Source: an uncultured Gammaproteobacteria bacterium
GTDB taxonomy: Bacteria > Patescibacteriota > Microgenomatia > UBA1406 > HO2-37-13b
DNA length: 64,000 nt
Reading direction: 5' to 3'
Assembly: GCA_964612595.1 (NCBI GenBank)
Contig: CAZTFB010000002.1
Span: 188,933 to 252,932, forward strand
Below the pieces are notes generated by a model, which was not told the DNA's origin, made no database searches, and saw nothing but the letters and a program-made list of their open reading frames with translations. The translations under genes and the position numbers were made by a program. Numbering within the stretch: position 1 is the stretch's first letter; each line of letters starts with the position of its first letter. Below, one piece after another: positions 3,948-62,978 of this stretch.

Positions 3948-3956
3948 TGATACAAT
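3948..3956 (+). promoter_or_regulatory. Extended -10 (TGaTACAAT) 6 nt upstream of ATG 3963
   Basis: TG at 3948-3949 and TACAAT at 3951-3956, followed by a 6-nt gap and the ATG. Confidence 0.45.
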
Positions 3957-3962
3957 GTATGC

Positions 3963-4328
3963 ATGAATAGGCAATTACTAATAGATGCTTTTGGATGGGG
4001 ATTTCTTCTTTGGTTAATCGGTTATGCGCTTGGAATAATGCTTTTTACTTTTGTTCCTCTTTCACTAATTGGTTGGATAATTATGCCAATCGGGACAGTT
4101 ATAACCTGGTGGGTATTGGTTAATAAAATAAAAGCAGACACATTTAATTATTATGTTAAGTTGGCTGTGGTATGGCTGGTAATGGCAATGGTTTGTGATT
4201 ATCTCTTCTTGGTAAAAGCATTCAAACCATCAGACGGCTATTACAAACTTGACGTTTACCTCTACTATTTTTTAATTTTCCTTTTACCAATTATCGTGGG
4301 ATGGAGAAGAAAGAAGGAATCGAAATAA
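3963..4328 (+). CDS. Small integral membrane protein (3-4 TM helices)
   Basis: Hydrophobic segments FGWGFLLWLIGYALGIMLFTF, LIGWIIMPIGTVITWWVLV, LAVVWLVMAMVCDYLFL and YLYYFLIFLLPIIVGW. Confidence 0.6.
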   Translation: MNRQLLIDAFGWGFLLWLIGYALGIMLFTFVPLSLIGWIIMPIGTVITWWVLVNKIKADTFNYYVKLAVVWLVMAMVCDYLFLVKAFKPSDGYYKLDVYLYYFLIFLLPIIVGWRRKKESK

Positions 4329-4329
4329 T

Positions 4330-5025
4330 ATGAATATGTTCAGGACAACAAAAGCAAATACCGTTGAAGAGTATCTTTCCATGGTTCCTGATGACAGAAA
4401 AGATGCAATATTATATTTACACACTTTCATCCAAAAAACAGTGCCCGCATTAAAACCGTACTTTGCAACCAATATGCTTGGGTAAGGTAAATTCAAGTAT
4501 ACTAACTATAAGAAAGAAACTATTGACTGGCCAATTATTGCCCTTGCCAACCAAAAACAATATATAAGTCTTTATGTTTGCTCAATACAAGATGGTGAGT
4601 ATGTTGCAGAAAAATACAAAAAAGCACTCGGTAAAGTAAGTGTCGGAAGAAGCTGTATCCGGTTCAATAAGCTCAAAGAGCTGAATTTTGAAGTTTTGAA
4701 GTGGGTATTAAAAGAAGCAGCAACAAATCCCGGTTGGCAATTAAAAAATAAACTAATTAATGCGAATTTACATATGAATGATTTTTCAAAACCTAAAAGG
4801 AAACGATATCTAATACCAGAATATGTTAAGCTGGCACTTGTAAAAGAAAGCGTTTTGAATTTATATCAATCGCGTCCTGCCTATCAGCAAAATGATTACA
4901 TTGGGTGGATAGAAAGAGCAAAAAGACCTGAAACACAATCAAGGCGATTAAGCCAGATGTTAAGTGAATTGAAGGCCGGAAATTTATACATGAACACGAG
5001 ATGGAACGGTTCAAGCACGAGATAA
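4330..5025 (+). pseudogene. DUF1801 (YdhG-like) + YdeI/OmpD-associated-like fusion gene interrupted by one in-frame TAA
   Basis: One reading frame runs 4330-5025 with a single stop, TAA at 4483-4485. After it, 70 sense codons follow before the first possible start (TTG 4696). The context NMLG*GKFKYTNY..WPIIALANQKQYISLYV matches the DUF1801 pattern, where I recall an aromatic residue at the stop position. Confidence 0.6.
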
Positions 5026-5125
5026 ATTAAAATAGAAGTTGCGAACTTTGTCTGCGGTTGACAGCAAAGGCATCTAGCTTCAATCAACTACCTTAAACTC
5101 TACCTCTCCAGGCTTGGATTCTGGC

Positions 5126-5134
5126 TGGTATAAT
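5126..5134 (+). promoter_or_regulatory. Extended -10 (TGgTATAAT) 6 nt upstream of ATG 5141
   Basis: TATAAT at 5129-5134, gap attatt, ATG at 5141. Confidence 0.5.
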
Positions 5135-5140
5135 ATTATT

Positions 5141-5779
5141 ATGTCAAAAAAATCGTCTCCTAAGGTACATTTCATTAAAAAAAAGGAAACTATTATCTTT
5201 GCATTGATTATTTTCTTGATTGTTATCGTCGCAGCAATACCCGCGTATTTTGCGATTTGGAGTTTTAAAAATAATTATAACGAAAAGATTATTGATCGTG
5301 AATTTCATAAAGATATTAGTCAATATCCAAATGTTAAAACAACAAAATTTACGTTGCGGGATGGAGGTAGTATGGTAACTTTAGATATCCCAGAAAAAGG
5401 TCAAGTTAGCTTTTGGTATGGGGTTGACCGCGTACCACGAATTCAATCAATAGGAAGATACAATACTTCGTTTACATGCTTTAATGTCGACAAAAACGGA
5501 AAAAAGGTCAGTTACGCATATGATACTTCTTTGTGGTTGGATGCGACATCTCCATACGCAAAGTGGTTTACTTTTAAAGTAAACACTATTGGCGATTTAA
5601 TTAATCGTTATAGTGATATTGAAACAGTTCTCAATACATTTCCAAAAAATCCAGAGCTTGTTGATTTCAATGATTCCTGGGGAGAAAGACAAATAGTTGA
5701 ACGCTCAAACCCAAATTTTCTGTTAAAACCTAACAATGGACAAGAATCACCGGTATGTGATTTGTATATTAATAATTAA
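5141..5779 (+). CDS. Membrane-anchored hypothetical protein
   Basis: MSKKSSPKVHFIKKKE is followed by the TM helix TIIFALIIFLIVIVAAIPAYFAIW. The start was moved from TTG 5114 to ATG 5141 because of the -10 box. Confidence 0.55.
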   Translation: MSKKSSPKVHFIKKKETIIFALIIFLIVIVAAIPAYFAIWSFKNNYNEKIIDREFHKDISQYPNVKTTKFTLRDGGSMVTLDIPEKGQVSFWYGVDRVPRIQSIGRYNTSFTCFNVDKNGKKVSYAYDTSLWLDATSPYAKWFTFKVNTIGDLINRYSDIETVLNTFPKNPELVDFNDSWGERQIVERSNPNFLLKPNNGQESPVCDLYINN

Positions 5780-6146: not shown

Positions 6147-6644
6147 TCAATGCATTTCCATACGCATTCTCATCTTTTGTCCCTTTCCGAATCCAAATAG
6201 ATACGAAGGGTCAATGTCATTTTTTTCTGCCCACATCTCAAGCTCCTCACGTCGCTTTTGAATTTTTGCGCGGCGCTCTTGGGGAGAGAGATTTTTTAGC
6301 TCCTCAAAATTTGCCTCTCTCTGGTTAAATAGCTCATTATGTTTTGCGATCAAAAGCTTCTTTTGAGCCTCTGTAAGCTTTCCGTCCTTAACCGCCTGAG
6401 AAAGCATATCTTCATAGCGAGCGCTCATTTCGCTATGGCGTTCTTTATGGATTTCGTCGAAAGCCTTTTGCACTTTATCTTCACTTACACCGAGTTTCTT
6501 AGACAAAGTCGACACAATAGTTTCTTTTTCAAGTCCGTAGAAACCGGCATTTACATTGTTGACGCTGACCGCAATCACTCCTAAAAGTGCAAAGCTTGTA
6601 ATAACGTATACTACTTTTTTATTTACTTTCTTCATATTGCTCAC
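6147..6644 (-). CDS. Secreted LTXXQ-motif protein (CpxP/Spy/ZraP-like) with Met/His-rich tail
   Basis: Signal-like N-terminus KKVVYVITSFALLGVIAVSVNNVNA, an LTEAQ motif, LSPQERRAKI, and the C-terminus KMRMRMEMH. SD GGGAGGTGA lies upstream. It is the last gene of the RR-HK operon. Confidence 0.5.
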   Translation of the reverse strand: MSNMKKVNKKVVYVITSFALLGVIAVSVNNVNAGFYGLEKETIVSTLSKKLGVSEDKVQKAFDEIHKERHSEMSARYEDMLSQAVKDGKLTEAQKKLLIAKHNELFNQREANFEELKNLSPQERRAKIQKRREELEMWAEKNDIDPSYLFGFGKGQKMRMRMEMH

Positions 6645-6694
6645 CTCCCTTCGTAATAATAATCAAAGTATATGAAGCATGTCTGAAAAATAGC

Positions 6695-7707: not shown

Positions 7708-8367
7708 TTATTTTGTTGTTATTTTGTACCCAAACCCACGTATTGTTTTAATAAGACGCTCACCAATTTTTTGCCGGATGTTTCTAATATTCACCTCCAC
7801 AGTATTCGGCAAAACATCTGCATCGAAATTCCATACATGATCAATGATTTCTTGTTTCGATACAATCTTTCCAGGATTTCTCATGAGATACTCAAGGATG
7901 GAGTATTCCTTTTTCGATAAGTTAACGAGTGCATCTCTTTTTTTGACCATCTGACTGTATGTATTAACTTCAACATCGTGAGCTACGAGTGTTGTGCGCT
8001 TTATCTCGCGCGGTCTGCGTAACAGTGCTCGTATGCGTGCTAGTAATTCATCGAAAGCAAATGGTTTCACCAAATAATCATCTGCTCCGATATTTAGGCC
8101 ATCGACTTTATCATAGATTTGTGTTTTGGCGGTAAGCATAAGTATGGGTGTTGTTATATTATTTTTTCGTAGATCCTTACATATCTGCATACCGTCCATT
8201 CCTGGAAGCATTCTGTCTAAGAGAATAAGATCGTAGTTTTCTGTTGATGCCATGTCATAGCCAGCAAGACCATCGTAGGCGACGTCAACAGCGTAGCTTT
8301 CTTGCTCTAATCCCTTTTTAATGGTATCTGCGATACGGGTTTCATCTTCAATGCATAATATACGCAT
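7708..8367 (-). CDS. OmpR-family response regulator
   Basis: MRILCIEDE..., LILLDRMLPGMDG and MLTAK form the receiver domain, and a winged-helix C-terminus ends ..IKTIRGFGYKI. The start was trimmed to ATG 8367, which has TATAAT 6 nt upstream. Confidence 0.9.
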   Translation of the reverse strand: MRILCIEDETRIADTIKKGLEQESYAVDVAYDGLAGYDMASTENYDLILLDRMLPGMDGMQICKDLRKNNITTPILMLTAKTQIYDKVDGLNIGADDYLVKPFAFDELLARIRALLRRPREIKRTTLVAHDVEVNTYSQMVKKRDALVNLSKKEYSILEYLMRNPGKIVSKQEIIDHVWNFDADVLPNTVEVNIRNIRQKIGERLIKTIRGFGYKITTK

Positions 8368-8373
8368 ACACAT

Positions 8374-8379
8374 ATTATA
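8374..8379 (-). promoter_or_regulatory. -10 box TATAAT 6 nt upstream of response-regulator ATG
   Basis: The minus strand reads TATAAT-atgtgt-ATG. Confidence 0.45.
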
Positions 8380-8427: not shown

Positions 8428-8436
8428 TGATATAAT
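8428..8436 (+). promoter_or_regulatory. Extended -10 (TGaTATAAT) 8 nt upstream of ATG 8445
   Basis: TG at 8428-8429 and TATAAT at 8431-8436. Confidence 0.45.
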
Positions 8437-8444
8437 ACCCACAT

Positions 8445-8756
8445 ATGAAGGAATACAGAGAAGCTCATATAAGCGCGAAGGACGAAGATCAAGCAAATTT
8501 AATTCTCAATACGCTACTTGAGAAAAAACTTGTGACCGGTGGATTACTTTTTATTGCTCCTGCTCGATTTTTGTGGAAAGAAAAGCTCGTCGACCTTCAA
8601 TATTTTAATATCACCGCCTTTACTATGGAAAAAAATCAGAAAGCGATTATCGAAACCGTAAAAAAAATCACCAACGAAGAACTCCCTACCATTTGGTTTA
8701 CAGAGATTGATGGAAGCGATGAGCTACTTGCATGGATCGATGACATGTTACAATGA
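8445..8756 (+). CDS. cutA: CutA-like divalent-cation tolerance protein
   Basis: Size (103 aa) and the pattern ..KLVTGG....PARFLWKEKL....YFNITAFT......II..VK......LPTIWFTEIDGSDELLAWI parallel CutA1 (..kLaAC....p..S.Y.WkG.i.........KT......l...i...HpYe.PEi..l.i..g...Yl.Wi). Confidence 0.55.
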   Translation: MKEYREAHISAKDEDQANLILNTLLEKKLVTGGLLFIAPARFLWKEKLVDLQYFNITAFTMEKNQKAIIETVKKITNEELPTIWFTEIDGSDELLAWIDDMLQ

Positions 8757-8759
8757 ACT

Positions 8760-10049
8760 ATGACCTGGAACGGTATCTATGTTGTCACCGACCCCACATG
8801 GGGAGATAACGGAAAAGGGAAAATCGTTGATCTTCTTTCTGACCGCGCCGAGATGTCTATACGCTACAATGGCGGTCCAAACGCTGGCCACACTGTTCGC
8901 AACGAACATGGCGAGTTTAAATTTCACCTCATGCCTTCTGCAATATTTAATCCGAATGCCCTTTGTGTTCTCGCCGATGCCGTAGTAATCGACCCGAAAA
9001 CGTTAGCTGAAGAGATTCTTGCCATTCGCACAGCAGGGGTCGGTATATCAGAGAAAAATCTTATGATAAGTCGGTCTGCGCATATGATTATGCCATGGCA
9101 CAGAGATAGAGATAACTTAAGAGAAACAGTGCGCGGCACGGGAAAGATTGGTACAACAGGTCGAGGTATAGGGCCAACGTATGCTGATCGTACAGAGCGT
9201 GTTGGATTACAGATGAAAGATTTGCTAGCTGGTGATTTTGAAAAGCGCTTGGAAAAAGAAATGGCATGGCAAGAAAAATTAGTAGCGCTGATGCGGGGAG
9301 ATGAATTTCGTTATGATCGTAAAGAAGTGATGGAAGAGTTGATGGCAGCTCGCGAAGTGCTAGCGCCATTAATAAATGATGTGCTGCCAGCGATTGGCGA
9401 ATATTTTTCGAAAGGAAAAAGAATTCTTGGAGAAGCAGGTCAAGGGGCACTTCTTGATCTTGATCGAGGAACGTATCCATATGTGACGTCGAGCCATCCA
9501 GGTGTTGTGGGGTTTTCGCTCACGACCGGCATTCCACCAAAGGCAGTAGATATGGTTATAGGGGTTACAAAAGCGTATACAACGCGTGTGGGCGAAGGTC
9601 CATTGCCGACAGAGTTGCTTGATGAAGATGGTGAACGAATACGAACAGTTGGTCATGAATTTGGGACAACAACAGGTCGTCCGCGTCGCTGTGGATGGTT
9701 AGATATTCCTGCATTGCGCTATGGATCGCAAGTTGCTGGAGCTGATGCATTAGCGCTTACAAAAATAGATATTTATGATGATTTTGACGAGATAAAAATA
9801 TGTGTAGGTTATGAGATTGATGGAAAGAAATATGAAAGTATTCCAAGTGTCGACATCGACTTCTTAAAGAATGCAAAGGCTGTGTATGAAACAGTGCAAG
9901 GTTGGAAATCGCCGACTTCGGACATTCGCGCACTACAAGATATGCCAAAAGAAGCACGTGAGTATATCAAGAGGGTTGAAAAGCTTGTGGGAAAACCAAT
10001 CTCCATTGTCTCCGTAGGTCCTGCGAGAGAAGAAACGATGTATTGTTGA
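8760..10049 (+). CDS. purA: Adenylosuccinate synthetase
   Basis: GDNGKGKIVD (P-loop), GGPNAGHT, TTGRGIGPTYADR and GTTTGRPRRCGW. Confidence 0.95.
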   Translation: MTWNGIYVVTDPTWGDNGKGKIVDLLSDRAEMSIRYNGGPNAGHTVRNEHGEFKFHLMPSAIFNPNALCVLADAVVIDPKTLAEEILAIRTAGVGISEKNLMISRSAHMIMPWHRDRDNLRETVRGTGKIGTTGRGIGPTYADRTERVGLQMKDLLAGDFEKRLEKEMAWQEKLVALMRGDEFRYDRKEVMEELMAAREVLAPLINDVLPAIGEYFSKGKRILGEAGQGALLDLDRGTYPYVTSSHPGVVGFSLTTGIPPKAVDMVIGVTKAYTTRVGEGPLPTELLDEDGERIRTVGHEFGTTTGRPRRCGWLDIPALRYGSQVAGADALALTKIDIYDDFDEIKICVGYEIDGKKYESIPSVDIDFLKNAKAVYETVQGWKSPTSDIRALQDMPKEAREYIKRVEKLVGKPISIVSVGPAREETMYC

Positions 10050-10055
10050 GATGTG

Positions 10056-10070
10056 AGAAACGGCAATTGA
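10056..10070. repeat. Left arm of 15-bp perfect inverted repeat
   Basis: AGAAACGGCAATTGA is the exact reverse complement of 10947-10961. Confidence 0.9.
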
Positions 10071-10242
10071 CCTTTCTGTTCCTAACATCCACTTCGGCAG
10101 CCAGCCGCTGGTCGATGTGATTCCGACCAGCGGCTGAGCTGCCTTGAAGCAGTACGGGGGGTCAGCCATTAAGCTGAACTACCCACCATACTCAGGGCAT
10201 ATGCCCTTCTTGTTGTTGAGGCTTTTTATTTAGTTGTGTTGG

Positions 10243-10710
10243 TTAGGCCCGGCTGGACTCCCCGAAGCGCGCCGTCCCCACGACGACGTACCCCGTAAGG
10301 AGCGCTTGGGACAGACGGTGGCCGGAGCCGCCGCTGGTGATCTCCATGAGCCGGAACTCGCGCATCGGCGCCATCGTCCCGAAGTGGCTGAACCGACCGG
10401 CAGGCCGTGGCGCGAACTGATGACCGTCCCTCTTGGTCGCCACATGACCGCCGGTGGTGCTGACGTTGATCCCGTTCGTGCAGATCTGACCGTGACGCCC
10501 CGTGGCGTGGAGATGGCCAGAACCCTCATCGAACCCGTAGGCGATCTGCATATGCCCGTCGTCACCGCCGGACTGCTGCATGATCGCCACATGGCCGGAG
10601 TTGTCGTTCGCGCCCGCGACCTGGTGGTCCCTGGAAGCGACGACACCGAAGACCATGATCGCCACGAACGCGATCACCAGAATCCATCGAGGGATTCGGA
10701 TCTCGTACAA
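10243..10710 (-). CDS. TM-anchored His/Gly-rich protein with high-GC codon usage (very weak Cu/Zn-SOD-like pattern)
   Basis: This is the only frame in the island with strong G/C at third codon positions. The TTG start is preceded by AAAGAGGTG. N-terminal TM helix IPRWILVIAFVAIMVFGVVAS. GHLHATGRHGQIC...TTGGH...LTGYVVVG loosely recalls the SodC motifs GFH.H..G.C / GGH / l.G.a.ViH, but metal ligands are missing. Confidence 0.55.
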   Translation of the reverse strand: MYEIRIPRWILVIAFVAIMVFGVVASRDHQVAGANDNSGHVAIMQQSGGDDGHMQIAYGFDEGSGHLHATGRHGQICTNGINVSTTGGHVATKRDGHQFAPRPAGRFSHFGTMAPMREFRLMEITSGGSGHRLSQALLTGYVVVGTARFGESSRA

Positions 10711-10946
10711 GGGTTACACCTCTTTCGTTCGATCGTGAGTCGAGTGGATTCCTCCCCGCCAGCTGCGGGGAGGGACATGCGGTCGGGTGGACACTGTCTA
10801 AGGCGGATCTCGAATCAAGCTTGCCTCCTTTCAAGGCTCATGTAGGGGGTTGACGCCAAGGTAGCGATTGGACGTTAGGGCAATAAAGACAAGCTTTGCT
10901 TACCTCTACAACCCTAACGTCCAGTAAAAATGTTGGTTTCTAATAA

Positions 10947-10961
10947 TCAATTGCCGTTTCT
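10947..10961. repeat. Right arm of 15-bp perfect inverted repeat
   Basis: TCAATTGCCGTTTCT is the exact reverse complement of 10056-10070. Confidence 0.9.
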
Positions 10962-11074
10962 GTCAAAGTACAAAATGTTTTTGCTGGTCGGACACGGCTA
11001 TTGTGTACGCCCTCAAAATTACTATCGGTAGTATAGGTCAGATTCTAAATCTTGTCAAATCAATAAATAGCAAC

Positions 11075-11083
11075 TGTTATAAT
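11075..11083 (+). promoter_or_regulatory. Extended -10 (TGtTATAAT) 6 nt upstream of ATG 11090
   Basis: TATAAT at 11078-11083, gap catgtc, ATG at 11090. Confidence 0.5.
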
Positions 11084-11089
11084 CATGTC

Positions 11090-11497
11090 ATGATCATTTA
11101 CCTTGCATGGATTCAGTCTATTGTTGCAACACTCGGAAGTCTCTATTTTAGCGAAGTCATGAAATTTCCACCTTGTGTTCTTTGTTGGTATCAAAGAATT
11201 TTTATGTATCCCCTCGTTTTCATTCTAGCCGTCGGCATGGTCCGTAAAGATAAAAAGATTCACACATATGTTTTGCCTTTAAGCCTCACAGGCCTATCTA
11301 TCGCGATATATCACAATTTACTTTATTATCAAATTCTTCCAGAAAGCGTTGCGCCTTGTGTTGCAGGAGTTTCATGCACAACAAAGTTTATACAATGGTT
11401 TGGCTTTGTAACAATCCCTCTACTTTCACTCATTGCATTTTCTGTAATTACTATCTGTATGTTGCTACATCTTCATCGATCAAAAAAACATTCATGA
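11090..11497 (+). CDS. DsbB/BdbC-family disulfide bond formation protein
   Basis: SLYFSEVMKFPPCVLCWYQRIFMYP carries the CxxC in periplasmic loop 1, there are four TM helices, and a second Cys pair is APCVAGVSC. The start was trimmed from GTG 11003. Confidence 0.75.
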   Translation: MIIYLAWIQSIVATLGSLYFSEVMKFPPCVLCWYQRIFMYPLVFILAVGMVRKDKKIHTYVLPLSLTGLSIAIYHNLLYYQILPESVAPCVAGVSCTTKFIQWFGFVTIPLLSLIAFSVITICMLLHLHRSKKHS

Positions 11498-11834: not shown

Positions 11835-11840
11835 TATAGT
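11835..11840 (+). promoter_or_regulatory. -10 box TATAGT 6 nt upstream of ATG 11847
   Basis: TATAGT-taaagc-ATG. Confidence 0.4.
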
Positions 11841-11846
11841 TAAAGC

Positions 11847-12785
11847 ATGGTACTGCATGCACTTTGGTATTTTGCACTTTTTGGCATCTTGTTACTCGGC
11901 GCAGATATAGCAATACGATCGGTTGAGAAAATATCTCGTTCCCTCCGTATCTCTTCTTTTGCAGTTTCATTTCTTATTCTAGGAGCCTTTACCTCTGTAG
12001 CAGAGTTTTCAGTAGGCATAAATGCAGTGATTGAAAATGATCCAGAAATTTATGTCGGTAATTTAATAGGAGCGTCCATAGTTTTGTTTATGCTGCTCAT
12101 CCCACTTCTCGCGATTATTGGCCACAAACTAGAAATCACCAAGGAGTTCCAAGGAAGCAACTTGGTTCATTCACTTTTTGTCATTGCAGCACCTGTGCTG
12201 TTGACGCTTAATGGACACGTAGGAAGACTTGACGGCATTATTGCACTTACGACCTATGTGCTACTTGCTTTTTCAATCCAAACAAAGAGGGGATTTGTGG
12301 CCACCCTCTTTGATCCGATACAAAAACGATCGCCCATTCGTAGAGAATTATTGCGCATTGTTATTGGAGTTATTATGATTTTTATAGCGAGTCATTACAT
12401 TGTTGTTGAAACAAACTACTTTGCAGAGTTACTTTCAGTTTCGCCCTTTATTATTAGCCTTATTATTATTTCACTGGGCACAAACATTCCCGAACTCTCA
12501 TTTGTTTTGCGCTCACTCTTTAAGAAAAACAATCAAGTCGCGCTCGGTGATTATATTGGATCTGCTGCTTTTAACACGTTTTTATTCGGCGTTTTAACAT
12601 TGGTCAATAATCAGCCGGTATTTTTAATAAAAACCTATCATGCAAGTCTTTTATTCTTAGTGATAAGTTTGATTTTGTTCTATTTCTTTGCAAAGTCACG
12701 CCAGTCTATATCAAGAGTGGAGGGTATTGTATTGCTCGTATTGTACGTTTTGTTTCTTTCTTCTGAGATTTTTCTCACTTCCTGA
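11847..12785 (+). CDS. Ca2+/Na+ antiporter (CaCA/YrbG family)
   Basis: About 10 TM helices with two alpha-repeat signatures, GNLIGASIV and ALGDYIGSAAFNTF. Confidence 0.75.
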   Translation: MVLHALWYFALFGILLLGADIAIRSVEKISRSLRISSFAVSFLILGAFTSVAEFSVGINAVIENDPEIYVGNLIGASIVLFMLLIPLLAIIGHKLEITKEFQGSNLVHSLFVIAAPVLLTLNGHVGRLDGIIALTTYVLLAFSIQTKRGFVATLFDPIQKRSPIRRELLRIVIGVIMIFIASHYIVVETNYFAELLSVSPFIISLIIISLGTNIPELSFVLRSLFKKNNQVALGDYIGSAAFNTFLFGVLTLVNNQPVFLIKTYHASLLFLVISLILFYFFAKSRQSISRVEGIVLLVLYVLFLSSEIFLTS

Positions 12786-12816
12786 TATAATATAGACTTC
12801 TCACCTAGAGATTACT

Positions 12817-14648: not shown

Positions 14649-14654
14649 TATAAT
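14649..14654 (+). promoter_or_regulatory. -10 box TATAAT 6 nt upstream of ATG 14661
   Basis: TATAAT-gttcaa-ATG. Confidence 0.5.
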
Positions 14655-14660
14655 GTTCAA

Positions 14661-15137
14661 ATGAATGATGAAGACTACATGAGGGTAGTTCTGCAAGATG
14701 CATATAATGCTAAGAAAATTGGCAATCTGCCAAGTGCTTCAATTCTAGTAAAGAACCATGAGATTATTTCTCGAGGAACAAGTTGTGTAGCTGTTGATTT
14801 TGATCCATCAGCACACGGTGATATGGTTTGTATTCGTAAAGCTTGCGCTCAACTTCAGTCACTAGATCTCTCAAAATGTGCACTCTATTCGATTATTGAA
14901 CCATGTGCTATGTGTCTCACCTGTGCAGCGTGGGCATCGATGTCTAAAGTTGTTTTTGGAGCATATAAAGAAGATATTCTAGAAAACTCATATCTTGTTA
15001 AAGGATATCATGCAGTAGATTTTGGCAGAAACCTTTCAACTTATGACGGAAACAGAATAAATATTGTTGGAGGTGTTTTGCGAGATGAATGTACGGCTAT
15101 CATGTCGAACGTAATAAACTGGCAGATCAAACAATAG
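14661..15137 (+). CDS. CMP/dCMP-type zinc deaminase family protein (TadA/guanine-deaminase-like) with HGD instead of HAE
   Basis: The zinc motif EPCAMCLTCAAWA (PCxxC) is present, but the upstream motif reads SAHGDMVCI where the family normally has H(A/C)E. Confidence 0.7.
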   Translation: MNDEDYMRVVLQDAYNAKKIGNLPSASILVKNHEIISRGTSCVAVDFDPSAHGDMVCIRKACAQLQSLDLSKCALYSIIEPCAMCLTCAAWASMSKVVFGAYKEDILENSYLVKGYHAVDFGRNLSTYDGNRINIVGGVLRDECTAIMSNVINWQIKQ

Positions 15138-27045: not shown

Positions 27046-27046
27046 A

Positions 27047-50210: not shown

Positions 50211-50215
50211 AATAT

Positions 50216-52110: not shown

Positions 52111-54232
52111 TATATACGCGGGATGAGCCGGATATAGAAGTAAAAATAGGTTGTCCCAGAGCCCCAAACTTCTGTTCTTGTAGTTGTGGATATTTCTCTC
52201 GCTCATTAGGTCCCACCACCACATATTCAACTCCATATTTCTTGAGTAATACCGCTGTAGCGGCTTTATCGTTGCTCTGGTACATGTTCTGAATATCCGG
52301 AATAATACTACCGACCACGTCAGATGATCCTCTCCATAGCCATTCATGCACCCACCAACCAGCTACAGTAGGTAAACCCGTATATGAAGAGATCACATTA
52401 AAATCAGTATAGGAATCACCCTGGGCTTCAAGAATGGTTGGTTGTCCTTTGACTGATGTGTTAAAAAATTCAACTATCTCAGCGTTCTCAGGAAATGTTG
52501 CAGAAAGCCATTGTGTGCCATCTAGTGAGGTTGTAGGCTTGTTTCCGTAATAAGACTGTATCGCAAATGAAGGATATATTGCTACGAGGAGAAACAGTGG
52601 TATTGCAAGTACAAAATACACAATCCCGAGCGGTTTTTTTGTCTCATTTATCGTATCTTTAAACGAAATGAATGTGTAGGCTGATGCAAGCCCCATCATC
52701 ATAAATGCTTGATAGCCAAGCTTAAACATAGTGTTTGCGCGAAAATGAGCGGGATAAATGTCTTTTGCGTATGCAAATTCGGGTATGGCAATGAGCAAAG
52801 TGCCATAGGCAAAGAGCATAAGAATAAAATAGTCGGTGGCTTGGAGTGATTTTTTTATGGATGGATAGAGCCTCAAAACAAAGAAAATAAAATTGAACCA
52901 GAAGAAACCCCAGAGTGTTACGAGCATCCACCAGGGAGAAACCTGACAATTTCCGGATTCAAATAAAAATGGTCCAAAAGTTTTCATTTCGACAAGGAAT
53001 GCAGGCGCACAGTTAATGCCAATACCTGTCGCAAATGGTTCAAAATGCAAAGTGAACGGTAAGCTAAAAACAACGAATGATCCTACGAGAAGCGCCATAT
53101 ACAATAAAAAATCTTTCGAGAGTTTATATACAACAAAAAATAAAATTGAGGCCAATATGAGATAAATGGGCGCGTCGAAAGCGTTAGTCATGTAATGTAC
53201 GGCAATCATAAATCCGAAAAGTAATGCGTATACCCAATCGGGTATTTTCTCTTTTTTGTTTGTGCTGCCTTCGAAAAATAACCAAAGTAATAATAGGGTT
53301 AGTAACACAAATGGGATATCATAAACGTGGCCGTGTAAGTCGGCCACTACATATGAATAGAGTGGGAATTCATGAATGGTAAATGGTATAAAGCGCGTGG
53401 CGTTTGGATACCAATAATTTACCGATAATTTTTCAAATGCTGCAGATGGATTTTTCAGATCTTGGAGTGTGTATTTTGGCTTCAGTTCCCAAAGTGCAAC
53501 GGGTTTATCATTAGGATAACCTTCGGTAAGGGAATAAGTAGTATGAAGATTCCCTCCCAGATTAATTAAGAACATTGCAAGGACCGCAGTAAGAAAAGCG
53601 AGTTTGACGTTTTTTTTGAAGCCGACATAAGCTACGTTCAAGCCAAGAGAAAAACTCTGTGTTATCCCGAGCGCAAAAATAGTTGCTAATATGAGGTTGT
53701 AGGTAATATGTGAGGGAATATTGGATAGTTTAGTAAGAACGGCACCAGTTATATGTCCAAAGTAATAATAATTAATTGATTTTCCTGCTAACCATATATC
53801 TTTCGGTGGAAAGTATTCGCCTCTCAGCGCAGAGTTGGTAAAGCCAAAATCCATAAATTTCTCTAAGCCTCGAACTGACGGTTCTTGTCCGCGTACGTAT
53901 GCCCATATAAAAAGTGCAACGAGGAAGAGAAGTTCCTCAAAAACCCACATTTTCGTAATTTTGAAGTCTTTTTTTGTTTTGTTGAATATGAAAAGATTAA
54001 AGACACCTGCAACAGCACAAATACCAAAAAGCGTTAAAGATGTGAAAGGGGCAATTTTTATTGTGCCAAGAACAAATGTTGTGTAGGTGATGAGTAGGAT
54101 GCCGATAATTTTTGAGAATGCATAGCCTTGGTCATATAATCTACCAAAAAGTAAACGGGTTGTTGGAAGAAAGATGATACCGATTATGCTTATTACGACA
54201 TACCACCACAACGTAAATACTTGCCATTCCAT
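52091..54232 (-). CDS. DUF2298 / chlor_Arch_YYY-domain polytopic membrane protein
   Basis: More than 15 TM helices, the INYYYFGH (YYY) motif, and a large C-terminal extracytoplasmic domain. Confidence 0.75.
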   Translation of the reverse strand: MEWQVFTLWWYVVISIIGIIFLPTTRLLFGRLYDQGYAFSKIIGILLITYTTFVLGTIKIAPFTSLTLFGICAVAGVFNLFIFNKTKKDFKITKMWVFEELLFLVALFIWAYVRGQEPSVRGLEKFMDFGFTNSALRGEYFPPKDIWLAGKSINYYYFGHITGAVLTKLSNIPSHITYNLILATIFALGITQSFSLGLNVAYVGFKKNVKLAFLTAVLAMFLINLGGNLHTTYSLTEGYPNDKPVALWELKPKYTLQDLKNPSAAFEKLSVNYWYPNATRFIPFTIHEFPLYSYVVADLHGHVYDIPFVLLTLLLLWLFFEGSTNKKEKIPDWVYALLFGFMIAVHYMTNAFDAPIYLILASILFFVVYKLSKDFLLYMALLVGSFVVFSLPFTLHFEPFATGIGINCAPAFLVEMKTFGPFLFESGNCQVSPWWMLVTLWGFFWFNFIFFVLRLYPSIKKSLQATDYFILMLFAYGTLLIAIPEFAYAKDIYPAHFRANTMFKLGYQAFMMMGLASAYTFISFKDTINETKKPLGIVYFVLAIPLFLLVAIYPSFAIQSYYGNKPTTSLDGTQWLSATFPENAEIVEFFNTSVKGQPTILEAQGDSYTDFNVISSYTGLPTVAGWWVHEWLWRGSSDVVGSIIPDIQNMYQSNDKAATAVLLKKYGVEYVVVGPNEREKYPQLQEQKFGALGQPIFTSISGSSRVYKITLDR

Positions 54233-54275
54233 CCTGTTAAGATATCGCTTTTAGATTGAATTTGCAAGCTACATT

Positions 54276-54284
54276 TGCTATAGT
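54276..54284 (+). promoter_or_regulatory. Extended -10 (TGcTATAGT) 7 nt upstream of valS ATG
   Basis: TATAGT at 54279-54284, gap tgccggt, ATG at 54292. Confidence 0.45.
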
Positions 54285-54291
54285 TGCCGGT

Positions 54292-56409
54292 ATGCAGAAG
54301 ACGTTTACGCCGTCAGAATGGGAAGAAAAATTATACGCTCAATGGGAACGCGAAGGCACATTGACTGCAAAAAGTGACACAAAAAAGGAACCTTTCTCAA
54401 TAATTCTCCCTCCTCCTAATGCAAATGCCGATTTGCATGTTGGTCATGCAATGTATGTGTACGAGGATATTATGATTCGCTACCACAAACTCATGGGCAA
54501 GGAAGTTTTATGGCTTCCTGGCGCTGATCATGCAGGTTTTGAGACACAGTTTGTGTACGAAAAGCACCTTGCGAAGCAAGATAAAAGTCGCTTTGACTTC
54601 CCCCGCGACGTACTCTATAAAAACATTTGGGATTTTGTCATGCAAAACCGCGAAACAATGGAGAATCAGCTGAGAAAATTGGGTTTCGCGCTCGATTGGG
54701 AAAAGAAAAAGTTTACTCTTGATGCTGATATTGTCGAAATTGTGTACAAAACTTTTGAGCGAATGTTTAATGAGGGACTCGTTTATAGGGGGCACAGATT
54801 AGTTAATTACTGCTGGAAAGATGGCACCTCGTTTTCAGATTTGGAGGTAGCCGATAAGGAAATTCCCGACACAACCCCAATTGAAGCCGAAGGAGGTTTA
54901 TTTTACATAGATTATGAACTTGAAGGTGGTGGCGTTATTACTGTCGCAACGACGCGACCAGAGACTATGTTTGGTGATGCGGCAATTATGGTCCACCCTA
55001 CAGATACGAGATATGTGGACCATATTGGAAAAAAAGCCTACATTCCAGTTATTCGGAAGCCAATTCCTATTATTGCGGATGAATATGTAGATAAGAAGTT
55101 TGGGACTGGCGCTGTGAAAGTGACACCTCTACATGACTTTAATGACTATGAGGTGGCAAAGCGTCATGGCTTAGAAGGTATTCAGGTCATTGGGTTTGAT
55201 GGAAAAATCATGAATACGGGAACCTCGTACGACGGTTTACGTGTTTTAAAAGCAAGAATAGAGCTTCAAAATGAGCTAAATCTACGAGTCGAGAAGCACG
55301 CAAAAGTGCTTAAAGTGTGTTACAAATGTGGGAAAACATTAGAGCCACTACCAAAAGAACAATGGTTTATTAAGGTGCGTCCACTTGCAGAGAAAGCGAT
55401 GGAAGCTGTTGAGAATGGTGAAATTGAAGTTCACCCAAAACGCTTTAAGAAGGTGCTTGTTGACTGGCTTGATGGATTTCATGATTGGAATATTTCGAGG
55501 CAGATTGTATGGGGTATTCGTATTCCTGCCTATCAGTGTGGGAAAGACCACTCAGAGAATGGCTGGTTTGTTTCATTGGAGCAACCGAAGAAGTGTCAAA
55601 AATGTGGGAATGATTGTGGGTTTATCCAAGATGAGGATACTTTTGACACATGGTTTTCGTCATCTCAGTGGCCCTTTGCTACGTTGATCGCACAAAAAGA
55701 TAAGGGGTTATATGATACTTTTTATCCAACTACTGTCATGGAGACAGGATATGATATTCTCCCCCCTTGGGTAGCGCGTATGATTATGGTCGGTATCTTT
55801 ACAACTGGTAAAGTACCGTTCAAGCACATATATCTTCATGGCATGGTGCGGGATAAAAAGGGTCTCAAGATGAGCAAGAGCAAAGGTAACGTCGTGAATC
55901 CGCTCGTCATGGTTGATAAATTTGGGGCGGATGCGCTACGTGCTACGCTTGTGTTCCAAACAACACCAGGCGGTGATGTGAGTTTTGCTGAAGACAAAAT
56001 TATCGGTATGCGTAATTTTGCGAATAAAATCTGGAATATTGGAAGACTCATAAAAATGAATGAAGAGGAAGATAAGAAAGACAGTAGTGAACCCTCACAA
56101 GACGCGATAAAAGCTTTGGATGAGCTTAAAAAGGCCCATGAAGCTCTCGAAAAATCAGTTCATAAGAATATGAAGAACTTTGAATTTGCCCGTGCGTTTG
56201 ACGACATGTATGAGTTTGTCTGGCATCAGTTTGCCGACATATATATTGAGCGGTTGAAAGAAGAGGTCCGATCTGGTAATATAAAGGTTCTTGGGGAGAT
56301 GAAAAACGTCTTTTCTACCGACCTCAAGCTTCTCCATCCTTACATGCCGTTTGTAACTGAAGCGGTATGGAAAGAACTATATGGCGAAGAAGCATCAGTT
56401 TTTGATTAA
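54292..56409 (+). CDS. valS: Valyl-tRNA synthetase (short form lacking the C-terminal coiled coil)
   Basis: [14 protein letters not shown] (HIGH), [14 protein letters not shown] and KMSKSKGN. About 705 aa from ATG 54292. Confidence 0.85.
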
Positions 56410-57894: not shown

Positions 57895-57903
57895 TGGTAT
57901 AAT
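57895..57903 (+). promoter_or_regulatory. Extended -10 (TGgTATAAT) upstream of the 57924 ORF / giant gene
   Basis: TG at 57895-57896 and TATAAT at 57898-57903, 20 nt before ATG 57924. Confidence 0.45.
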
Positions 57904-57923
57904 ACTATAAGTCGTAATTAACG

Positions 57924-58166
57924 ATGAAGGCTACACAATATCAGTATCAGAATGTACTGTTTATCATATTAGCCTTAGGCGCGGTCTTTTTACTGGCTCC
58001 ATTTCTCCTCGCATTCGACTCTCTTTTCTATATGATAGTTCGACCGTCTTGTCTCCAGTGTGGCGCATTATCAAGCTTTTTAAAATCTCAATCACTAACT
58101 GCTGCAATGCTTTCATCATTGAACATTTATTCATTTAAACAAATCGCTCATGACAAACGGACCTGA
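57924..58166 (+). CDS. 80-aa membrane protein preceding the giant gene
   Basis: TM helix VLFIILALGAVFLLAPFLLAF. Its end overlaps the ATG of the 1328-aa gene by 17 nt. Confidence 0.35.
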   Translation: MKATQYQYQNVLFIILALGAVFLLAPFLLAFDSLFYMIVRPSCLQCGALSSFLKSQSLTAAMLSSLNIYSFKQIAHDKRT

Positions 58167-61100: not shown

Positions 61101-62136
61101 TGAAGAATACTATGGCTCACTGATGAAATTCCATGAAAAGTTGCTTGAAGAGCGTGATAAAGATCGCTACAACAGAGTAGGTGGTAGGAATAAAAAGAGA
61201 GAATCGTTATCAAAACGGTATGCGCACATGTTGGCTATTAAACAAGGTGGTATAGATCAAGCCCTTGGTGGTTCCTACTTCGATTTTTCGCTTGAGATTC
61301 AACAAGGTGGTGTTGATGCGATTAATCGATTAAGTGGAGATGTTGTCAAATCTGCCAAAATGACCGAGGCCTGGGAAGAGCTTGCAGGTGATGGTGGAGC
61401 TATTGAAAAATTTGCTATGAGCGGGGCAAGCACAGAGGATGAAATAAAAAGTGGCGCAAAGGCAATCGGCGAGGCAATAGCTAAAATTTCTCAATACCCC
61501 TATTCTTTCAGCCCTGAACAAGGTAATGAATATAAAATACGACACGAAATTTTTTGGGCACGTGCATTTGAAAAACCTCGAGTATTTAGGGGGCTTTTAG
61601 GCCCGCTCCACGAAGTAAACTGGAAAAGCGGAGGAGGTGGTCAGTCGAGTCTGATTGCCGAGTATTATCAGAAGGTTTTTGGACGAACGAATGTGACTGC
61701 TCTAGATGCAGATCAACTTCGTACGATGCTCGATGAATTTGAACATGTGCTTAAGGTACCGCCACGAAGATTTGAGGTAGATGAGTATGAGAGTGTTTCA
61801 GACATGAATGTTGTTCGAAGAGGTATTCGAAGAGTTGAGGATTTTACCCGTCATGTCCCATTGGTGGGGCCATTGATTCGTGGAACGCTGCGCTCATTGA
61901 CAAGCCCTCTTACGGAAGCCCATGTAAAAGAATACAGAATTCAACACTACAACCAAGATCTCGCACTTCGAGAGATGGGCGCACGCAACAGAGATGTCTT
62001 TAGAGAGAAACTACTTTCATGGGATTCTCTTGCGCTTTTAGCATCAATCTTTTTGGGTTATGCAAAAAAAGCAGACGATGTCAAAGGCCTTGGTGGAGGC
62101 GGCGGTGGAGGTGGTGGCAGCAAGGGTCATCACTAG
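58150..62136 (+). CDS. 1328-aa orphan protein (charged, helical; poly-Gly C-terminus)
   Basis: Uninterrupted 3987-nt ORF. I saw no Walker A, HExxH or other catalytic motif. PEPPKPPENPPNQP linker near aa 180, hydrophobic LLSWDSLALLASIFLGY near the C-terminus, and it ends in GLGGGGGGGGGSKGHH. Confidence 0.8.
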   Translation: MTNGPEQGRNQESPLQRKIRETRENIKKVLGGIDSDTARSEEDKKKSKEEILKTSREELNRHLEKHENVPDDRRDPDKAAEDVMTHVAELAELVEQKVVPHLPEIAGAVVTALATKKFSPRKALLIGKIVSEIIGSEQFKATTEAGSEAVKKKLRDLADSLRGGGQDDIAEVVAEQLGPPEPPKPPENPPNQPGMPEYGEDPGDDHEPIEKYLNSHYRRIKSTRDPTTGKIIEGNADWLDIEERKANGGGYMGMTAEHQKSLLGVAIVNQIDLTRSQRVVIRAFDGGDEFKAYFMATKEMLTEKMRASGKLQPTETADINQVYKEMSGHVKELVRELLSSLSGTVDQANAKESRYIALLVDRISRNIRTEITGDVDMDVPGSIKLEGTDAFLPAEGQTNSNRDLAEDDWGNLVGGMGEYLVPRNVQVSMSEALVDDLAATLTKLQKITVGFHNARTNAYSLGSHEELGQQLKKDGVKPADIVWAFKKEEDINLAYNLLIQSLQQLKSQTARTITERYGSMSKVRGFTEAEYRAWIQLLSLDDGYRKAEIAYKLAKEAGDKAKEKLYKKGIDSIMRQKERAIKMASGIAWGHSREAWGVLLDAKLLTKREGKGTEDDPYTIGQHYGGSQSTGIEKMLAELHPATSDDRWGRDKVAPIWMLYQPRDLEAAETGWKRDEVFTHTRLYDLYDQHQKAFYSGRSDDLADFDDQYVTLHEFANVTSLHMLRREGWRLRQYEHYLNQYAKDAEAEGLKGMDKHEYMMKRLMIRGGPRLVKMYIDKKVGDMLEVDNGADKSMARRLKKGKKAEDGEKKIGKEFSWQKKALEEARKAKQYGLERYYAKYIFDDLSKRFATSLIAFEQPRYMPMNEKTLYTTLNSFIETQPFLKDLPPGVIQTEVYPIYIDAIHTIERHKWEGITKDKSGSKKDQIARQIADPKDISSADFNDPNIKAKLKTHFKLNNERMGEITDKMYSLTNAKTDAEMDQAFEEYYGSLMKFHEKLLEERDKDRYNRVGGRNKKRESLSKRYAHMLAIKQGGIDQALGGSYFDFSLEIQQGGVDAINRLSGDVVKSAKMTEAWEELAGDGGAIEKFAMSGASTEDEIKSGAKAIGEAIAKISQYPYSFSPEQGNEYKIRHEIFWARAFEKPRVFRGLLGPLHEVNWKSGGGGQSSLIAEYYQKVFGRTNVTALDADQLRTMLDEFEHVLKVPPRRFEVDEYESVSDMNVVRRGIRRVEDFTRHVPLVGPLIRGTLRSLTSPLTEAHVKEYRIQHYNQDLALREMGARNRDVFREKLLSWDSLALLASIFLGYAKKADDVKGLGGGGGGGGGSKGHH

Positions 62137-62147
62137 GCGTCTATTTT

Positions 62148-62156
62148 TGGTATAGT
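62148..62156 (+). promoter_or_regulatory. Extended -10 (TGgTATAGT) 6 nt upstream of ATG 62163
   Basis: TATAGT at 62151-62156, gap agtggt, then ATG. Confidence 0.45.
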
Positions 62157-62162
62157 AGTGGT

Positions 62163-62978
62163 ATGATGCGAAAAGGCATACTACTGGTCTTGTTACTATT
62201 TGTATTCTTTACCTTACCCGACAGAACCTTTGCATTTGGTATTGATGTAAATATAAACAGAACAATACCAGGGGTAAATTGTGGGGTACCTAATCTTCAG
62301 AGTAACCCAGACGCAGCAAAATGCTGTTACTATAAACCCATTGAGTCTATATCTAAAGTGCCATGGATTATAGAAAAGATGGGGGGTATTGGTCTCCTTC
62401 CATTACTGCCAAATCCATTCAAGGCCTGGAATAATGCACGCGAATCAGTATTAAGAACACAAGATAAGTATGCCTCAATGAAACCCTGTTGGGCAGGAAT
62501 TCCAACACCACTCAGCATTCCTGCGTCAGATCCGTCATGTCGATGTGAGATTCCCCCTGAAAACGTTAGATCCAGCATAGTAACGCTTTGCCGAGAGAGA
62601 TTTGATCCTGCCAAGAGAGGCGAAGGTGTTACTTTGTCATCAGCAGAACTTGCTCGTTTGGACCGTGAAATGAATCAATGCATCGCGTGTGCTGAAGATA
62701 ATGGGTACTATAGTGCCATAGGTTGCTTCAAATTTAGCGTAACCGACTTTATTACGCGATGGGTTTTTGGCTTTGGTGTAAGTCTTGCAGGACTTCTTGC
62801 ATTAGCATGTATTATTGTCGGTGCCTTGAAAGTTCAACTTTCACAAGGACAAGCTGAAACTGTACAGCAATCGAGAGAAATGATTGTCTCGTGCCTACTT
62901 GGCCTCATTCTTATTATCTTCTCAGTATTCTTGCTTAACTTTGTAGGTATTACGATACTGCCAGGATTATTCTTTTAA
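62163..62978 (+). CDS. Cys-rich secreted protein with C-terminal T4SS-pilin-like two-TM module
   Basis: Signal peptide MMRKGILLVLLLFVFFTLPDRTFA and 14 Cys (KCCYYKP, SCRCE, QCIACAE). The C-terminal helix-loop-helix is VSLAGLLALACIIVGALKVQLSQGQAETVQQSREMIVSCLLGLILIIFSVFLL. Start trimmed from 62019. Confidence 0.6.
   Translation: MMRKGILLVLLLFVFFTLPDRTFAFGIDVNINRTIPGVNCGVPNLQSNPDAAKCCYYKPIESISKVPWIIEKMGGIGLLPLLPNPFKAWNNARESVLRTQDKYASMKPCWAGIPTPLSIPASDPSCRCEIPPENVRSSIVTLCRERFDPAKRGEGVTLSSAELARLDREMNQCIACAEDNGYYSAIGCFKFSVTDFITRWVFGFGVSLAGLLALACIIVGALKVQLSQGQAETVQQSREMIVSCLLGLILIIFSVFLLNFVGITILPGLFF

Follow-up and report, generated by a model that had tools for sequence, protein, structure and literature searches.

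Leaderless initiation, in which an mRNA begins at its own start codon, is already known from Actinobacteria, Deinococcus-Thermus, some Mollicutes and archaea. Its signature in bacterial DNA is a Pribnow box 6-8 nucleotides (nt) from the start, and group C of the GeneMarkS-2 classification, the leaderless type, consists mostly of Actinobacteria and Deinococcus-Thermus (PMC6028130). Nearly every group C genome with genetic code 11 is GC-rich, and the exceptions at low GC are Mycoplasma, which use code 4 (MetaGeneMark-2 preprint). Here we describe a 64,000-nt stretch of contig CAZTFB010000002.1 (the window; all positions are counted within it) from a member of the candidate phyla radiation (CPR/Patescibacteria), in which about 20 of 75 genes, or some 40% of those standing first in a transcription unit, look leaderless: each follows a -10-like hexamer at a nearly fixed distance, and these elements are probably sigma-70-type promoters positioned to begin transcription on the start codon's A.

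In Actinobacteria (M. tuberculosis, M. smegmatis, Streptomyces, Corynebacterium), as here, a TANNNT -10 element lies 6-8 nt before the start codon of a unit's first gene, with no Shine-Dalgarno (SD) sequence (PMC6028130); likewise, the -35 element is weak or absent, and a quarter to half of the units are of this type (PMC6028130, PMC3898074 and PMC4633059). The window differs in having 41% GC, ATG only at its leaderless-type starts, and a full TATAAT box, often with TGn. The leaderless genomes of Actinobacteria are GC-rich, and GTG is also used at their leaderless starts. As in group C generally, a TANNNT-type motif is localised upstream of the starts of unit-first genes; the remaining genes of group C use SD sites, whereas most of the remaining genes here have none, and the leaderless trait is combined with SD scarcity. 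Nor does the window resemble group B (the Bacteroidota type), since the motif does not precede first and internal genes alike. In Deinococcus deserti the -10 element also abuts the ATG, and most transcripts whose starts were mapped are leaderless (167 of 262 genes in differential RNA sequencing data quoted in PMC6028130); that organism is GC-rich, belongs to another phylum and has experimentally demonstrated starts, whereas those of the window are assigned from sequence. The Mollicutes of group C have reduced genomes of low GC, in which 30-60% of units are predicted to be leaderless (MetaGeneMark-2 preprint); they are Firmicutes-derived and use code 4, whereas the window uses code 11. Within the same radiation as the window, SR1, Campbellbacteria, Wolfebacteria and Peribacter have been described as having few genes with SD pairing; that work derived SD independence from 16S/mRNA pairing energies and, in some lineages, loss of CCUCC, and did not show promoter-abutted starts (PMC10783764). 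In the window the anti-SD is presumably intact, because strong GGAGGTGA sites exist. Archaeal transcripts (Haloferax, Sulfolobus; group D) likewise start at or within a few nt of the AUG, with other signals used by internal genes; their TATA box lies ~26 nt upstream and is read by a different polymerase with different initiation factors (PMC6028130).

The window has 40.7% G+C (59% A+T). We assign it to a CPR bacterium because the nearest named relatives of its ValS, QueA and TypA proteins belong to Candidatus Woesebacteria or 'Microgenomates' metagenome-assembled genomes (MAGs). ValS is 76% identical to that of Candidatus Woesebacteria bacterium GCA_018062135.1, 67% to that of Microgenomates OLB22 and 73% to that of OLB23 (over 78% of the query), and TypA is 91% identical to that of GCA_018062135.1; the NCBI lineage runs from the Patescibacteria group through the Microgenomates group to Candidatus Woeseibacteriota. 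Judged by these matches, the organism is a Woesebacteria-like Microgenomates bacterium. QueA and TypA proteins identical to those of the window are encoded on a 324-kb NCBI contig. Genetic code 11 applies, because TGA acts as a stop in the open reading frames (ORFs) used.

All counts of gene layout refer to 75 genes curated in the window. The comparison set comprised ten related Microgenomates loci (L038-L042 and L046-L050) with orthologous proteins 30-98% identical to those of the window; L040 was left out of the comparative statistics. In L039 (an NCBI Woesebacteria MAG contig) and L040 (a JGI metagenome contig), the genes upstream of valS occupy matching coordinates and the intergenic sequence is identical, while their ValS proteins are 76% and 82% identical to that of the window, a discrepancy that may reflect strain variants or a chimeric assembly. 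A contig search with QueA returned distant homologues only (at most 49% identity) and no close relatives; its loci were reused as controls, namely 347 kb of Clostridia/Bacilli, AT-richer than the window, and loci from other CPR lineages. The patterns of a metagenome search with a CPR TypA alignment were too general and retrieved mostly non-CPR loci (45-58% identity), which served as a broad negative control only; the mixed metagenome control came to 958 kb.

An earlier note on this DNA listed 18 genes with a TATAAT-like hexamer 5-8 nt, mostly 6 nt, before the ATG. All 18 hexamer/ATG pairs were found at the coordinates given there, with TATAAT in 11, TATAGT in three, TATACT in three and TACAAT in one, and with gaps of 6 nt (14 pairs), 7 nt (two), 5 nt (one) and 8 nt (one). 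The ATGs open ORFs of 91-705 amino acids (aa) in 16 cases and of 45 and 41 aa in the other two, and both of these small ORFs are conserved in relatives along with their promoter. Two further sites, before purA and the DUF2298 gene, fit the same description and are also kept in relatives. The 20 sites are as follows, with the gap counted from hexamer to ATG and, where it differs, the start given in the ORF track, a program-made list of reading frames.

3951-3965, plus strand: TGa-TACAAT, gap 6, ATG 3963; 121-aa membrane-like protein with no Pfam family.
5129-5143, plus strand: TGg-TATAAT, gap 6, ATG 5141; 212-aa protein; ORF-track start TTG 5114, within the promoter.
8365-8379, minus strand: TATAAT, gap 6, ATG 8367; OmpR-type response regulator, receiver domain from residue 3; kept in L049.
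8431-8447, plus strand: TGa-TATAAT, gap 8, ATG 8445; CutA1.
8749-8762, plus strand: TGt-TACAAT, gap 5, ATG 8760; purA, with the promoter in the 3' end of cutA; absent from the earlier list.
11078-11092, plus strand: TGt-TATAAT, gap 6, ATG 11090; DsbB; ORF-track start GTG 11003.
11835-11849, plus strand: TATAGT, gap 6, ATG 11847; Na/Ca exchanger family.
14649-14663, plus strand: TATAAT, gap 6, ATG 14661; cytidine/dCMP deaminase family, with the box directly after the TAA stop of typA.
22565-22579, plus strand: TATACT, gap 6, ATG 22577; 180-aa protein.
26518-26532, plus strand: TATAAT, gap 6, ATG 26530; 171-aa protein with a signal-peptide-like N-terminus; TTGACA 15 nt upstream of the box.
30880-30894, plus strand: TATAAT, gap 6, ATG 30892; queA; ORF-track start ATG 30868; homologues of 351 aa.
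31949-31963, plus strand: TATAAT, gap 6, ATG 31961; DUF2079 membrane protein, 13 nt after queA.
33431-33444, plus strand: TGg-TATACT, gap 5, ATG 33442; 45-aa remnant of a PQ-loop protein.
35369-35383, plus strand: TGg-TATAAT, gap 6, ATG 35381; fatty-acid desaturase, the element being TGGTATAAT-N6-ATG.
36572-36587, plus strand: TATAAT, gap 7, ATG 36585; 91-aa membrane protein; kept in L047.
39279-39293, plus strand: TATACT, gap 6, ATG 39291; 41-aa hydrophobic ORF overlapping the msrB start (39413) by ATGA.
41496-41510, minus strand: TATAAT, gap 6, ATG 41498; bcp/AhpC-TSA.
54230-54244, minus strand: TATCTT, a weaker hexamer, gap 6, ATG 54232; DUF2298; absent from the earlier list.
54256-54294, plus strand: -35 TTGAAT (54256-54261), 17-nt spacer, TGc-TATAGT (54279-54284), gap 7, ATG 54292; valS; ORF-track start TTG 54256.
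62151-62165, plus strand: TGg-TATAGT, gap 6, ATG 62163; 271-aa protein; ORF-track start ATG 62019; 265-272 aa in relatives.

The preference for a 6-nt gap was also recovered by a scan made without regard to annotated starts, in which a TAnnnT hexamer with at most one mismatch to TATAAT had to be followed by an ATG opening at least 80 codons and lying at most 50 codons from the upstream in-frame stop. This gave 11 matches at gap 6 in the window against a mean of 1.27 per gap at gaps 9-30 (Poisson p = 1e-7), and a looser scan of ORFs of at least 100 codons gave 13 against ~2 per gap elsewhere. GTG and TTG candidates showed no spike, with none at gap 6 in the 100-codon scan of the window. The related Microgenomates loci have 27 of 461 candidate ATGs at gap 6 (p = 1e-13). 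Gap-6 candidates number 11 of 152 in the window versus 4 of 729 in the Clostridia/Bacilli loci (Fisher p = 2e-6), which show only 3-nt coding periodicity and no gap-6 spike; the mixed metagenome sample has 19 of 2374. The enrichment that the earlier note proposed to look for, by setting -10-to-ATG distances against background, is present in the window and lacking in the AT-richer loci. Among the 75 genes, background predicts ~2.5 chance matches at gaps 5-8, and ~20 were observed.

The boxes have the character of promoter elements. TGn, which the earlier note had seen before several of them, precedes 8 of the 18, compared with 7.2% when every hexamer of this type in the window is counted (p = 1.6e-5); over the 20 aligned sites, the three bases before the hexamer are T in 13, G in 14 and G in 11. 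Hexamer positions T1, A2 and T6 are invariant, and the consensus is TATAAT. Transcription starts prefer a pyrimidine at -1 and a purine at +1; this combination is present at 15 of the 18 sites (p = 0.002), and the -1 pyrimidine at 16 of 20 once the two added sites are counted. Across the window, 14 of 43 TGnTAnnnT motifs lie at most 40 nt upstream of a gene start in sense orientation (~1 expected), and all eight exact TGnTATAAT motifs lie at most 25 nt upstream of a start, four of them at gaps 6-8. The majority consensus of the sequence upstream of the 45 non-abutting genes, obtained without specifying a motif, reads ttgTATaAT at -15 to -7 with T at -1. No such motif precedes any of the 25 genes in abutting or overlapping positions, and their motif-free consensus shows nothing comparable.

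The favoured distance from the -10 element to the transcription start is 7 bp (PMC12641261). A 6-nt gap places the hexamer at -12 to -7, so that +1 would fall on the A of the ATG; the sharp spacing and the sigma-70 start distance agree with the placement suggested earlier. None of the 5-8-nt gaps contains an SD sequence. At 11847 and 31961 the GGT of an aGG-TATAAT context reads as a weak partial SD; it belongs to the promoter context, and the lack of SD sites claimed for the boxed genes holds.

Comparison with relatives indicates that these sites are maintained. An ATG preceded by a hexamer with A2 and T6 at a gap of 5-8 nt is kept at 27 of 30 orthologous starts versus 11% of random ATGs in the same loci (p = 4e-23). 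When the 20 diverged pairs are compared with the window, the hexamer is 0.90 identical (the search criterion fixed positions 2 and 6 at 1.0 and left position 1 free) and the TGn zone 0.75, against 0.44 for the sequence further upstream and 0.45 for the gap. By this measure the box and its spacing are under purifying selection. For the desaturase gene, tGG-TATAAT-N6-ATG is kept in three genomes behind unrelated upstream sequences, and box and gap are also kept behind unrelated upstream sequence for cutA and purA. The queA element TATAAT-N6-ATG is found in the window, L046 and L047 with three different gap sequences and diverged flanks. The deaminase site is TATAAT with gap 6 in the window, TACAAT with gap 6 in L048 and TATACT with gap 7 in L049. 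The cutA box has a gap of 6 in L048, while L049 has no box at gaps 5-8, its nearest being a TACAAT at ~11 nt; the 26530 site has a gap of 7 in L046. The 39291 ORF is 93% identical at the amino acid level in L046, where TATAAT stands at gap 6, and the PQ-loop gene at 33442 has TGn-TATACT, the 5-nt gap and the ATG identical in L046 and L047. Between valS and the DUF2298 gene, a 59-nt spacer holds two back-to-back promoters with -35 elements TTGAAT and TTGCAA (the latter at 54262-54267, serving 54232), each with a 17-nt spacer; this layout is kept out to Microgenomates OLB22, where the boxes differ and the gaps have changed from 7 to 6 and from 6 to 7.

Other sites are not shared in this way. The DUF2079 gene has its own leaderless-type promoter in the window (31947-31961) and in L046; in L047 (11053-11056) the promoter is lost and the gene overlaps queA by ATGA. 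DsbB is leaderless-type in the window only, and its layout is not kept in L048 or L049. To judge from these loci, the initiation mode is one that turns over between relatives.

The choice of start codon bears directly on this geometry. The earlier note had held that the pattern corrects over-extended starts in the ORF track, and the eight ORFs concerned (track starts 5114, 8496, 11003, 26497, 30868, 41603, 54256 and 62019) were corrected because Pfam N-termini, homologue lengths and the gene calls of relatives bear the shorter forms out. Counted from the box-adjacent ATG, Pfam domains begin at residues 2-14 in the response regulator, QueA, the deaminase, Bcp, DsbB, ValS and PurA. Nearly all ValS homologues are 690-760 aa and QueA homologues 346-373 aa long, with query coverage of 98-100%; homologues align from residue 1 at equal length. 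Independent gene calls in relatives give the same starts. Of 33 orthologue alignments extending to the N-terminus, 30 have the ATG at the corresponding position; among the three that do not, at least two align 33442 out of register, and its ATG is actually kept. A tblastn hint that 33442 is a non-conserved start was overturned by an internal deletion in the window gene, the promoter and start being the same in L046 and L047. For the response regulator, automated picking gave ATG 8424 (TATTAT, gap 7); this was rejected and 8367 preferred, since the shorter protein has its receiver domain from residue 3 and a site of the 8367 type is kept in L049.

Several of these sites have features of their own. 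The response regulator start (8367, minus strand) is divergent from that of cutA (8445), with 77 nt between the start codons. Immediately before the promoter of 22577, inside the end of an apbE-like gene, is a terminator-like hairpin (22529-22548); transcription termination and re-initiation would here be packed into ~30 nt (22529-22577). The PQ-loop (MtN3/SWEET-like) gene at 33442-33579 encodes 45 aa in the window versus 87 aa in L046 and L047, after loss of an in-frame segment flanked by two short GAAA(A)C(A/G)AAAG repeats and of a second segment; the gene may be decaying, or it may be a variant of half the size. The 41-aa ORF at 39291-39416 heads the msrB-mgtE unit; the small membrane protein it encodes would escape an ORF track that applies a minimum length. 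The start codons of bcp (minus strand) and an ECF sigma gene (plus strand, ATG 41526) are 27 nt apart, and their -10 boxes, 41505-41510 on the minus strand and 41509-41514 (TATAAT) on the plus strand, overlap in a palindromic TTATATAA. The region 41496-41528 is a bidirectional promoter, leaderless-type toward bcp; the ECF sigma gene would have a leader of ~4-5 nt.

The leaderless layout is unevenly distributed among gene arrangements. Of the 37 genes whose upstream neighbour is divergent or at least 40 nt distant, 14 have it (15 with 54232), as do six of 36 close co-directional genes, all six with spacers of 3-29 nt, so that these promoters lie in the end of the preceding gene; no abutting or overlapping gene has it. 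Given the six sites just behind a co-directional gene, the description of the boxed genes as operon-first is better taken to mean that each opens a transcription unit of its own. In further unit-first genes this box stands 11-32 nt upstream, and the resulting leaders are short and mostly lack an SD. Internal genes for the most part adjoin or overlap the gene before them (ATGA and similar arrangements, -8 to +3 nt; e.g., 1584, 2789, 33792, 34109, 39413, 45622 and 57365) and lack an SD, a layout that implies widespread, if putative, termination-reinitiation coupling. A recognisable SD precedes only ~7-9 of the 75 genes. The contrast drawn earlier, between leaderless-type genes and highly expressed or internal genes with strong SD sites, is accurate for the three SD sites that were quoted (the RRM, LTEAQ-protein and histone-like genes); it is not general for internal genes, because so few genes have an SD and most internal ones abut or overlap their neighbour. 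Starts of these other types are the following.

37814-37961, minus strand: RRM protein gene; SD GAGGTGA 37824-37830, ATG 37816, promoter TTGACA-16-TATAAT 37961-37934, leader of ~110 nt.
6633-6649, minus strand: 162-aa secreted protein with one LTEAQ motif and no Pfam match; SD GGGAGGTGA 6641-6649, 5 nt, ATG 6635.
15420-15439, minus strand: 65-aa Lys/Ala-rich histone-H1-like protein; SD AAGGAGG 15433-15439, 10 nt, ATG 15422.
12786-12819, plus strand: typA; TGa-TATAAT 25 nt before ATG 12817, leadered, no SD.
45942-45964, plus strand: prenyltransferase; TGTATAAT 14 nt before ATG 45962, short leader; promoter conserved in L038-L041.
57898-57926, plus strand: TGg-TATAAT 20 nt before ATG 57924, leadered, no SD; conserved in L038-L041.
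50193-50237, both strands: two exact TGnTATAAT motifs, 50193-50198 (plus) 17 nt before ATG 50216 and 50237-50232 (minus) 21 nt before ATG 50210.

The RRM promoter is the only perfect TTGACA-16-TATAAT in the 20-kb stretch scanned for it (22001-42000), and because it precedes this gene the polymerase evidently uses canonical signals. Over its last 50 nt the RRM leader hardly differs in L046 and L047, suggesting a regulatory 5' untranslated region (UTR). The 65-aa protein (15225-15422, minus strand) is built over nearly its whole length of Lys, Ala, Val and Thr repeats (AKKK, VKKT), as in histone H1. At 50193-50237, two divergent glycosyltransferase genes start 5 nt apart with each promoter within the first codons of the other, and their mRNAs would overlap antisense at the 5' ends.

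All sequence-level tests able to tell a -10 box set for leaderless transcription from AT-rich chance or a non-SD ribosome site favoured the -10 box, as did the comparison with relatives, and these observations are probably best explained by the following scheme. RNA polymerase would recognise a near-consensus -10 element, often extended to TGnTATAAT, with little or no -35 element; the base statistics behind this are observed, and the recognition itself is what they suggest. By universal promoter geometry, transcription would start ~7 nt past the last T of the box, which at a 6-nt gap is the A of the ATG, behind a -1 pyrimidine. The resulting mRNA would have no 5' UTR or SD; a ribosome loaded with initiator tRNA may bind its 5'-terminal AUG directly, by analogy with experiments in E. 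coli, mycobacteria and Deinococcus. The restriction of the spike to ATG and the N-termini backed by homology lend this last step indirect support. Downstream genes abut or overlap without an SD and would probably be expressed by translational coupling, while a few, probably highly expressed, genes would instead have a leader with a strong SD.

Several points weigh against this reading. We infer the leaderless state from the geometry of the sites, and about 2-3 of the ~20 are expected by chance. At ~8 genes the start was chosen among alternatives with the motif in view; most of these starts have independent support, the exceptions being 5141 and 26530. TTGACA is not enriched 16-18 nt from the boxes (mean best match 3.28 mismatches versus 3.43 in background), and a scan for two-hexamer promoters was at chance (55 versus 51.9 +/- 8), so that the identification as promoters comes from the -10/TGn part and from no other element; -10/TGn-driven promoters are also known from mycobacteria. 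Low structure at the 5' end has been reported to favour leaderless translation in other bacteria. When the first 25, 35 and 50 nt were folded, the 5' coding ends of leaderless-type genes were no less structured than those of other genes. In the literature, no set of 5' ends at single-nucleotide resolution was found for any CPR bacterium; the only CPR start-site set found, for Nanosynbacter, derives from RNA-seq coverage and is imprecise (PMC12641261).

The alternative that survives best accepts the promoters as real and holds that most protein comes from longer read-through or upstream transcripts, with leaderless transcripts a minor output. Read-through transcripts with an internal ATG are indeed likely at the six sites 3-29 nt behind a co-directional gene, and the DUF2079 gene of L047, which without a promoter of its own is ATGA-coupled to queA, indicates that the two modes are interchangeable. 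As a general account this is nonetheless rather unlikely: 14 or 15 sites head divergent or well-separated units with no upstream co-directional transcript, at least one internal site follows a terminator-like hairpin (22529-22548), and the purifying selection apparent on box and spacing would be hard to reconcile with a minor role.

It is less probable again, and distinctly so, that the hexamer is an A/U-rich, non-SD ribosome-binding or enhancer element (e.g., an S1 site) within a longer 5' UTR, as in Bacteroidota of group B. The rarity of SD sites in this genome, the classification of other CPR lineages as SD-scarce (PMC10783764), and the AT-rich motif close to the start would all suit such an element. 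The group B motif, however, precedes first and internal genes alike (PMC6028130), whereas the one described here is absent before the 25 abutting genes. Exact TATAAT, TGn and a -1 pyrimidine are contacts of RNA polymerase and not of the ribosome, and the spike is limited to ATG. TGnTATAAT also occurs 14-25 nt before other genes and, behind a perfect -35 element, 95 nt before the ATG of the RRM gene.

A slightly smaller probability still attaches to the view that the true starts lie further downstream, so that the promoters give ordinary short leaders and the box-adjacent ATG goes unused. The start codons are assigned from sequence, not experiment, and the proteins at 3963, 5141 and 22577 have no Pfam family to anchor the N-terminus; against this stand the seven proteins with near-terminal Pfam domains, the homologues aligning from residue 1 at equal length, and the conservation of the ATG in nearly all alignments. 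Chance co-occurrence of TATAAT-like hexamers and ATG, conceivable in a 59% A+T window with 582 TAnnnT hexamers at no more than one mismatch, is refuted by the scans of the window and its relatives, the lack of a spike in AT-richer Clostridia, and the conservation of the sites in orthologues.

The probable placement of promoters at start codons may extend beyond the Microgenomates. Five loci from Saccharibacteria, Peribacteria and an unclassified Patescibacterium, which came from the QueA contig search made for another purpose, have 10 and 7 candidates at gaps 6 and 7, respectively, among 144; the total of 17 compares with 13 of 729 at these gaps in Clostridia (p = 4e-7). A Parcubacteria locus has 16 called genes, of which four or five carry a TGn-TATAAT-type box 6 nt before the ATG. 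Exact TGnTATAAT abuts an ATG-initiated ORF (gap 5-8) in 16 of 53 cases in CPR, one of 75 in Clostridia and seven of 104 in the mixed sample, the CPR sample being small (~370 kb in total, 90 kb outside Microgenomates). On these data there is about an even chance that promoter-abutted starts are a general, possibly ancestral, feature of CPR (Microgenomates, Saccharibacteria, Peregrinibacteria, Parcubacteria). If so, then together with SD scarcity and the reduced ribosome, leaderless and coupled initiation would be the main expression mode of a very large low-GC radiation, contradicting the picture of leaderless-rich code-11 bacteria as GC-rich Actinobacteria and Deinococcus-Thermus.

A full-text literature search found no paper on leaderless genes in CPR/Patescibacteria; subscription journals were thinly covered, and an earlier mention is possible. 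What appears to be new is the lineage, a large and almost wholly uncultured share of bacterial diversity; the low-GC, code-11 genome, which goes against the stated trend for leaderless-rich bacteria; and the occurrence of the trait where internal genes hardly ever have SD sites. The CPR ribosome has no uL30 and a short bS1, and bL9 is often missing from it (PMC9297842); CPR retain YchF, a factor linked to leaderless translation (PMC12641178). The trait offers a testable link between reduced ribosomes and initiation mode. In such genomes, gene callers and ORF tracks over-extend or misplace starts, as in the eight cases that the pattern corrected here. TGnTATAAT followed by 6 nt and ATG would also give the genetics now being developed for Patescibacteria a minimal expression signal that is ready for use.

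Apart from the start sites, the window contains two GC-rich islands (10050-11000 and 38150-39250), 0.7-1.1 kb stretches of 56-66% G+C in a genome of ~40% G+C. An Rfam search of the window identified tRNA-Gln only, with no match in intergenic regions or in these islands, and ORFs open on both strands of the islands have no Pfam match. Islands occupy syntenic positions in relatives (L048 5288-6240, L049 7509-8572, L046 15600-16200 and L047 15600-16200), with conserved flanks and almost no nucleotide similarity between genomes. In the minus-strand ORFs (10243-10710 in the window, 7683-8333 in L049), a common membrane anchor at the N-terminus precedes a domain that varies. The islands seem likeliest to hold a fast-evolving gene for a secreted protein.

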